A stretch of DNA of 64,000 nucleotides, taken from IMG/VR virus record IMGVR_UViG_3300033073_000738, positions 1-64,000 of that record; one strand, given 5' to 3'. This stretch comes from a virus (taxonomy: Duplodnaviria; Caudoviricetes). Under the pieces are notes generated by a model. It was not told the origin of the DNA. It searched no databases and was given only the letters and a program-made list of their open reading frames with translations. Both the position numbers and the translations under genes were made by a program. Positions 1 through 37,665 of this stretch are shown here, piece by piece (positions within the stretch are counted from its first letter, which is position 1; the number at the start of each line of letters is the position of its first letter).

Positions 1-475
1 GATGTGAAACCACACTGACTAATGACAAGCAGACCCTAGTTTGAGTCGTAAGACCTCTAGGTGAGCGGTTAATCAGTCTCCCAAGGGTGAGCAGTTGTAA
101 TAGTTCCTGTACATAGATAAGAACGGATTAAATAGTAGCTCTAAGAATAGCTATTACAACTGAGTGCAGAGGGAGTTAACTTACTCTTGTTGCGTCCACG
201 TAGTTTAAGTATAAAACATACGCCCCATTGGTATAGTTTCTACTATGATCAAGGTAATCGTATATGTCAGGAGTATAGCCTGACCATTGGACAAAACTTC
301 TTAACCTGTACCCTTGAAAAACTCGTATTTAAAGATAAGCAGGTTAGCTCTGATATAAAAGGGTAAGAGAATAAAGAGCAAACGTGTTGTTCCCTTGAGA
401 AAGGAATAGATAAAGGAGGATAAGCTGCTTTCAAAAGCATTGTATCTCACAACACAGAGGACTTCTCATCCTCAA
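1..475 (+). ncRNA. Candidate large structured ncRNA (probably 5'-truncated by the window; family unassigned)
   Basis: No ORF. Nested stems: CAGTTGTAATAG 92-103/CTATTACAACTG 151-162, CTCCC 78-82/GGGAG 171-175, CCTAG 35-39/CTAGG 57-61 with a GTC-GTAA-GAC GNRA hairpin, TAACCTG 302-308/CAGGTTA 340-346, GTGTTGT 384-390/ACAACAC 449-455. Two loop-loop complementarities. Abuts a tRNA-like element. Confidence 0.6.
194..293 (+). other. Degenerate tRNA-like element embedded in the ncRNA
   Basis: GTCCA/TGGAC acceptor-like stem, T8A9, GTTT/AAAC D-arm, ATACG/CGTAT stem enclosing about 36 nt, GTCAGG/CCTGAC arm with a non-canonical 7-nt loop AGTATAG. Confidence 0.4.
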
Positions 476-37629: not shown

Positions 37630-37665
37630 AGAAAGGCACCAGTAAAATGGTGCCTTCTCTTTTTT
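37630..37665. terminator. Bidirectional terminator at the convergence of the two gene blocks
   Basis: AAGGCACCA/TGGTGCCTT with A- and T-rich flanks. Confidence 0.8.

Follow-up and report, generated by a model that had tools for sequence, protein, structure and literature searches.

Three small RNA modules, one of them twister-related, and two anticodon-less tRNA-like RNAs at the start of a large phage contig

The DNA analyzed here, which we refer to as the window, comprises bases 1–64,000 of the 121,014-bp viral contig IMGVR_UViG_3300033073_000738 from IMG/VR (Caudoviricetes; linear class, CheckV completeness 93%). Its source is a large tailed phage in an aquatic sample. We find that the first 478 nucleotides (nt) are a head-to-tail array of three independent modules, designated A (1–177), B (303–379), and K (384–473), each of which has constant ends and a variable middle. 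Together with two tRNA-shaped RNAs that lack an anticodon loop, they lie on the plus strand, and positions 1–751 likely represent a phage operon of the tRNA-island type that contains only non-coding RNAs (A, a spacer, B, K, and the two tRNA-like RNAs) and that would yield processed, stable small RNAs.

The modular organization is apparent from the relatives of each module, which were collected by three exact-pattern scans of IMG/VR (with the A 3′ core, the B core, and a 25-mer of the K core). Each module is present in about 95 to more than 119 other IMG/VR phage stretches, where it has unrelated flanks, is found in other orders and beside other neighbors, or stands alone. K–B and B–K adjacencies both exist among these relatives, and identical variable middles reappear in different contexts. 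In this phage each module is single copy. The nearest relative of the locus (L003), which was found via the open reading frame (ORF) at 812, has in common with it only positions 381–764 (nhmmer 4.5e-15). The 125 nt between A and B (178–302) form an unconserved spacer, of which a search of related loci totaling 3 Mb found no relative; its predicted fold is cloverleaf-like (z = −1.7), lacks a tRNA signature, and has no Rfam match. Given that it has neither a model match nor a relative, the possibility that this spacer is a degenerate tRNA was ruled out.

An initial annotation of positions 1–475 had proposed a structured non-coding RNA, and this proposal is borne out by conserved helices with compensatory changes, which are seen in all three families. 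The features exceed chance because of their conservation in relatives and not because of folding energy: on either strand, folding of the 480 nt gives z = −1.9, so that thermodynamics alone is not significant. The description of the region as free of ORFs holds at a length of at least 60 amino acids and fails below it, where three ORFs of 49–59 amino acids overlap the region (187–366 on the plus strand, 267–440 and 301–450 on the minus strand).

The same annotation took the region for the 3′ part of one giant RNA resembling GOLLD or ROOL, or of a new class, and called for the sequence upstream. The record holds no such DNA, as window base 1 is contig base 1; a 1551-nt RNA-library contig of run X19 reaches 1452 nt past window base 1. 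A single large multi-domain RNA, whether like GOLLD and ROOL or of a new giant class, with its 5′ part beyond the contig start, would be in keeping with the absence from 1–751 of an ORF of at least 60 amino acids, an internal promoter, or a terminator, and with the spacing of only 4 nt between B and K; GOLLD, moreover, adjoins tRNAs in lake phages. We nevertheless regard such an RNA as extremely unlikely. Searches with cmscan over the whole window (gathering threshold) and over 1–900 (E ≤ 10) returned only two aberrant tRNA matches and none within 1–480; thus, GOLLD, ROOL, other large RNAs, tmRNA, RNase P, and group I introns had no match at either threshold. The blocks are separable, occurring singly and reordered in hundreds of contigs, no conserved long-range pairing connects the modules, and the spacer has no relatives. 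In addition, the 5′ end of A coincides with the contig start: in all 22 other copies of its subtype, conservation begins with 2–3 nt (mostly UAA) just before the first letters of the contig. What is cut off from A is therefore about 3 nt, in contrast to the entire 5′ half that a giant RNA would have lost. Two of the three modules, B and K, have no Rfam family even at E ≤ 10; literature searches turned up no description of either, and blastn of positions 1–800 against cultured phages gave no match.

Module B, whose core is found in 114 IMG/VR stretches, is composed of two hairpins joined by kissing loops. Inside helix P1 (AACCUG/CAGGUU, 303–308/340–345) are a large loop, which is conserved, and a small hairpin (326–328/335–337), which varies, and helix P2 (GCUCU/AGAGC, 347–351/375–379) encloses GAUAUAAAAGGGUA..AGAAUAA. 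The two loops contain the first of two loop–loop complementarities that had been pointed out at the outset, TACCCTT (309–315) with AAGGGTA (359–365); relatives conserve it, and its 7 bp are paired in 100% of cells. In an alignment of 33 copies, 98.5% of cells are paired and 8 pairs change on both sides, including 5 of 5 pairs in P2, and none of 500 shuffles attains such values. Cognate-strand tests give z = 12 for P1 and z = 15.7 for P2. With respect to the kissing loops themselves, the loop-1 variant TACCCCT, seen in 7 contigs that represent four or more different P2 or hairpin contexts, is always accompanied by AGGGGTA, and the form TACCCTT is accompanied by AAGGGTA 75 times and by AGGGGTA 29 times. 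Based on these combinations, one pair of the B kiss runs through U–A, U·G, and C–G. Seven contigs of metagenome-assembled genomes (MAGs; L463–L469), assigned to Clostridia (sheep colon), Lachnospiraceae, Porphyromonadaceae, Gottesmanbacteria, and Paceibacterota, also carry B; these are probably mis-binned phage genomes. Several of the B-bearing MAG contigs are about 100 kb long.

Module K combines a junction with a 3′ kissing hairpin. An identical 25-mer of its core is present in 95 IMG/VR stretches, and searching the fetched loci with a covariance model gave 105 copies. Helix P1 (GUGUUGU/ACAACAC, 384–390/448–454) encloses the P2 hairpin (391–393/403–405, loop CUUGAGAAA) and a variable insert of about 40 nt (407–447), and a further hairpin, GAGGA-CUUCUCA-UCCUC (456–460/469–473), lies outside P1 on the 3′ side. 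The second complementarity noted initially, TGAGAA (396–401) with TTCTCA (463–468), joins the P2 loop to the loop of this 3′ hairpin and is likewise kept in relatives, so that both contacts are conserved, with some covariation in the homologs of B and of K. Of the K cells, 98.4% are paired and four pairs have two-sided changes; covariation is scarce because the core is strongly conserved. Four K copies have TGATAA in loop 1, and two of these (L339 and L455) have the matching TTATCA, a compensated change from G–C to U–A. Among more than 50 distinct K copies, TTATCA is never combined with TGAGAA, and one C-to-U change gives G·U. Sequence comparison thus lends moderate support to the K kiss as first proposed. 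In the two compensated copies (L339:2483–2587 and L455:2918–2999) the linker between P1 and the 3′ hairpin is altered as well, from ACAC-A-GAGG to ACAC-U-GAGG. A search for compensated K with the pattern ACACAGAGGNNTTATCATCCTC gave no match because the compensated copies have ACACTGAGG instead. The inserts of K are purine-rich (58% A+G), and Shine–Dalgarno-like words in them exceed shuffles by only about 2 standard deviations; the insert in the window holds AAGGAGG. Searching cultured phages with K alone produced only matches of 19–20 nt, which are at chance level, and a match in Pseudoalteromonas phage HM1 was dropped since it reached 23 bits and lacked the 3′ half.

Module A belongs to a family whose 3′ constant part, ACAACTGAGTGCAGAGGG, is found in more than 119 IMG/VR stretches. 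The elements of its main form follow the order UAA, UGCA, CC, P4, UUCCCAAGG, P4′, P5 (a long variable stem), GUGCA, GAGGG. In published twisters the order is UAA, CUCC, GC, P3, CCG, GUCCCAAGC, CCGG, .., GGAG, GAGGG (PMC8501958, element table), and a survey of twisters describes P1 as dispensable, L2 as tolerant of insertions, and P3 and P5 as highly variable (PMC11662667). Matched element by element, the main form fits a type-P1 twister with a P5 stem. The A family shares with twister (type P1 with optional P3/P5; Roth et al. 2014; RF03160) the element order, L1 UAA, the L4 core UCCCAAG, the L1 3′ strand GAGGG, a 3-bp CCC/GGG pseudoknot, a covarying P4, a short dispensable P1, and a variable auxiliary stem at the position of P5. 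A second pseudoknot, of 2 bp, is shared as well, with CC/GG instead of GC/GC. The family differs from twister in that its P5 inserts reach several hundred nt and Rfam models leave it undetected. Of 75 distinct copies of the main form, 73 have UAA and 72 have CC; P4 is 5 bp long and occurs in at least 8 fully compensated types, and the P1 of 3–4 bp pairs better than shuffled partners (z about 8). Directly after one A copy (L183:2710–2795) there is a RAGATH-1-hammerhead match of 35.5 bits, which is below gathering, with a CUGAUGAG...CGAAAC core.

The copy in the window belongs to a rarer subtype (23 distinct copies) that departs from twister by a 64-nt arm between the P4 5′ strand and L4 and by a P4 of 2–3 bp, with the arrangement (UAA)GAUGUGAAAC-CAC-[arm]-CUCCCAAGG-GUG-AG-[P5]-A-GUGCA-GAGGG. 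The inserted arm (14–77) is closed by a stem, 14–22/69–77, that contains one C·A mismatch here and whose cognate strands outpair non-cognate strands by a wide margin (z = 9.9, 16 distinct strand pairs), a strong covariation. Its variable interior includes a hairpin (43–57) that is the GNRA hairpin of the initial annotation, with a GUAA tetraloop at 48–51 and the closing pair C47–G52. The L4-like strand CUCCCAAGG (78–86) shares its core with the L4 of published twisters, GUCCCAAGC, and is invariant in 21 of 23 subtype copies. The P5 stem (92–162) is the perfect 12-bp helix recognized initially, in which CAGTTGTAATAG at 92–103 is the exact reverse complement of CTATTACAACTG at 151–162; it carries a variable insert of 47 nt, and the inserts of relatives span 19–373 nt. 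The P2 3′ strand GUGCA and the L1 3′ strand GAGGG (164–173) are identical in all copies fetched, an invariance that is to be read with the search patterns in mind, since these fixed or constrained the same letters. GAGGG (169–173) corresponds to the L1 3′ strand of published twisters, the first G of which is the general base. CCC (80–82) is complementary to GGG (171–173), a pairing (PK2/T1) that extends here to CUCCC/GGGAG, and CC (10–11) is a candidate for the other pseudoknot (PK1/T2) with GG (85–86); the two are complementary and nearly invariant, with no two-sided covariation. This CC sits 3 nt past P2 and overlaps a possible P4 strand. The proposed P2 5′ strand UGUG (3–6) would pair with UGCA (165–168) through two Watson–Crick and two wobble pairs; relatives carry either G or A at position 6, both of which pair with U165, and P2 shows no two-sided covariation.

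We consider the chances even that the window copy of A is an active ribozyme. The twister cleavage dinucleotide N^A is expected directly before P2, where the subtype relatives read UAA-GA, and the site is partly missing here because the contig starts after UAA. P2, PK1, and P4 face competition from a local hairpin, UGUG-AAAC-CACA; that this subtype is a switchable twister is a tentative and rather doubtful suggestion. An additional search pattern, AAGATGTRAAACCAC, was dropped as its matches were mostly due to chance (112 of 135 across all loci).

A different account of these patterns is that the conserved blocks act mainly as DNA, for instance as hot spots of recombination or mobility such as homing sites or att-like cassette boundaries, and that RNA structure is incidental. 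Constant parts are up to 25/25 nt identical across phages that otherwise share little, and identical inserts lie in different flanks, which together suggest frequent horizontal exchange; the assembly also broke exactly at a module edge. We consider this account very unlikely given that helices are kept by compensation despite drift (in all of B P2, in the A P4 types, and in the A arm), that the kiss positions covary, that A matches a known ribozyme fold, and that relatives are present in RNA libraries. Furthermore, the window modules are all on the strand of the tRNA-like RNAs, and the adjoining tRNA-like ends in the extracts of other contigs have the same orientation as the modules there. Shared modules probably break metagenome assemblies, which would account for the contig start at a module edge. 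The near-identical run X1 holds 93% of the stretch, assembled as short pieces that are broken at module edges; an exact 29-mer from the A insert was absent from metagenome contigs.

The initial annotation placed the region at the head of a tRNA-like cluster, and two tRNA-like RNAs do lie within 481–751, both without an anticodon loop. The first (481–597) has a Leu-type D arm, a T arm, an acceptor stem, and A73, lacks CCA, and carries a 45-nt folded insert in place of the anticodon loop. It matches the Rfam tRNA model (RF00005) with 31.4 bits and a 56-nt insertion, and ARAGORN reports no tRNA. Full-length relatives, insert included, are found in L280, L225, and L052 at about 75% identity. The second (682–751), which like the first keeps a Leu-type D arm and A73, has normal acceptor, D, and T arms and an anticodon region that is 4 nt too short, with a 10-nt remnant as its anticodon arm; it matches the tRNA model with 48.3 bits (682–750), and ARAGORN reports it as “tRNA-???” with a two-base anticodon. 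Neither has the 7-nt anticodon loop on a 5-bp stem of a tRNA cloverleaf, and as they are the sole tRNA-model matches in the 121-kb contig, the island has no decoding tRNA. Just 5′ of the second, a short element (650–682, ..GCTGACAGCTGGAAAGACAGCAACAG..) is 90–100% identical in 8 other loci and may be a further small motif or a processing signal.

The array lies directly upstream of the ORFs that begin at 812, on the same strand, and in several phages (for example L251, L313, and L224) B is located 20–40 nt before an ATG. The modules could accordingly be viewed as a cis-acting leader of early genes, riboswitch-like or ribozyme-controlled, in place of free-standing RNA genes. This appears unlikely to us, as the two tRNA-like RNAs and a promoter-like site (761–789) lie between K and the first ORF. 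In relatives, too, a tRNA-like RNA and not an ORF is often what follows: an AGTCAGG-type tRNA-like sequence is directly 3′ of K in 31 of 61 copies and of B in 21 of 77. In the window, 7 nt separate the end of K from the first tRNA-like RNA.

The plus strand within 1–751 has no sigma-70-like promoter and no terminator, from which we infer one precursor that is cut by A and by RNase P and RNase Z. We hypothesize that this precursor would be transcribed from a promoter upstream of the contig start, that A would cut itself near the conserved UAA and so set the 5′ end of the following RNA, and that RNase P and RNase Z would cut at the tRNA-like RNAs and free their neighbors, as in the T4 tRNA cluster. 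B and K would then persist as compact, stable RNAs whose invariant loops would most likely form a surface that binds a protein or ligand of the host or the phage, with the variable insert as tolerated cargo. A compact scaffold that may present a binding or catalytic surface would be consistent with three traits: loops that hardly vary, conserved single strands rich in A (B in particular), and a tolerance for any insert. Our preferred hypothesis is that B and K are co-transcribed and processed, and that they bind a factor of the host or the phage as stable small RNAs. Relatives of A, B, K, and the first tRNA-like RNA are present in metatranscriptome contigs of two studies, at depths of up to 489, which is a hint that these RNAs may be expressed. 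Neither RtcB nor a CCA-adding enzyme is found in the 121-kb contig.

A number of observations weigh against this interpretation. The 4 nt between B and K contain no tRNA-like element, so that RNase P and RNase Z cannot separate the two here, and B and K may instead form a pair or a fused RNA. RNA-library contigs cannot show RNA ends and may include DNA, and one such contig reads straight through the predicted A cleavage site. As for A, Rfam twister models match neither the window nor L125, L133, or L183, and RF03160 searched on the whole contig finds nothing at 1–177. In the window, P4 is at most CAC (11–13) with GUG (87–89) and the arm lies inside the loop, unlike the P4 helix that closes L4 in twister; 8 of 23 subtype copies change GUG without compensation, so that P4 is not kept in them. 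Subtype relatives also have two extra nt, GA, between UAA and P2, and half of P2 is wobble pairs. The kissing loops are nearly invariant, and covariation therefore rests on one position in each of the B and K families. Within K, two of the copies with TGATAA (L196 and L453) retain TTCTCA and are uncompensated; as L453 and L455 are otherwise close relatives, this looks like a change followed by compensation. Lastly, the inserts are barely structured, with a mean z of −0.4 relative to shuffles for K (about 41 nt) and −0.9 for the P5 inserts of A (about 74 nt), which makes their role as passive cargo an assumption. With respect to the B–K gap, 4 nt separate position 379 from 384 here, and 4–5 nt without a tRNA-like element separate the modules in L223, L258, L332, and L241; B precedes K here, and K precedes B elsewhere.

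If the modules are viewed in relation to other systems, a precedent for their position is T4, in which rnaC and rnaD (species 1 and 2), small stable non-tRNA RNAs of unknown function, end the tRNA cluster; the array is likewise in line with tRNA-shaped RNAs. The best match of the K model in the T4 tRNA region is rnaD (L456:1254–1372), with 14.4 bits and a rough E of about 0.02. K (384–455) and rnaD share the core UGNUG-UUCCCUG...CANCA-CAG, which in rnaD reads UGAUG-UUCCCUGAGUAAGGAA ... CAUCA-CAG; rnaD has no 3′ kissing hairpin, and the K-like hairpin is not kept in the rnaD homologs of T2 and AnYang. We therefore treat the relation between rnaD and K as a lead only. GOLLD (RF01998) and ROOL (RF03087) resemble the array in that they are phage-borne, near tRNAs, rich in pseudoknots, and partly from lake metagenomes, but each is one RNA of 500–800 nt, whereas the units of the array are 77–177 nt long, independent, and without a match to either model. 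Weinberg and colleagues reportedly found, in 2015, RAGATH-type motifs, pistol, hatchet, and twister-sister by their nearness to twister and hammerhead ribozymes. B and K are similar to these in being compact, conserved, pseudoknotted, and adjacent to a twister-type RNA, and a related island has a hammerhead-like element; they differ from them in having no Rfam sequence or structure match and no evident cleavage site.

Annotation of phage tRNA islands usually stops at the tRNAs, and this array holds a twister-type RNA, two families missing from Rfam, and tRNA bodies that have no anticodon. Judging by the A family, the standard models miss a large branch of twister-like RNAs in phages, with consequences for ribozyme censuses. 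Roughly a hundred or more contigs of uncultured phages carry B, and the same holds for K; bins derived from gut samples contain B as well. The conservation of their cores equals that of ribozymes or riboswitch aptamers, which makes B and K promising places to look for new RNA biochemistry or for phage counter-defence. That B, K, or both constitute a new functional RNA class with a chemistry of its own, either a self-cleaving ribozyme beside twister and hammerhead, as in the discovery of pistol and hatchet, or an aptamer that captures a host defence signal or protein, is a tentative and rather doubtful suggestion; if true, many phages of aquatic and gut habitats would carry such a class.

At the other end of the contig, the last 130 nt (L002:9872–10000) contain a strong terminator and, after it, a non-coding tail of about 100 nt in which two good hairpins form. 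This tail has no relatives and no tRNA or Rfam match, and no relatives in IMG/VR were found for the protein encoded there; in a circularly permuted genome, this end could adjoin the RNA array. The promoter-like site at 761–789 precedes the first ORF at 812, from which small ORFs extend onward and are followed by a replication module with helicases, an exonuclease, and a DNA polymerase. Further along the window, three consecutive giant ORFs of 2237, 2969, and 3078 amino acids occupy positions 37664–62525 on the minus strand.

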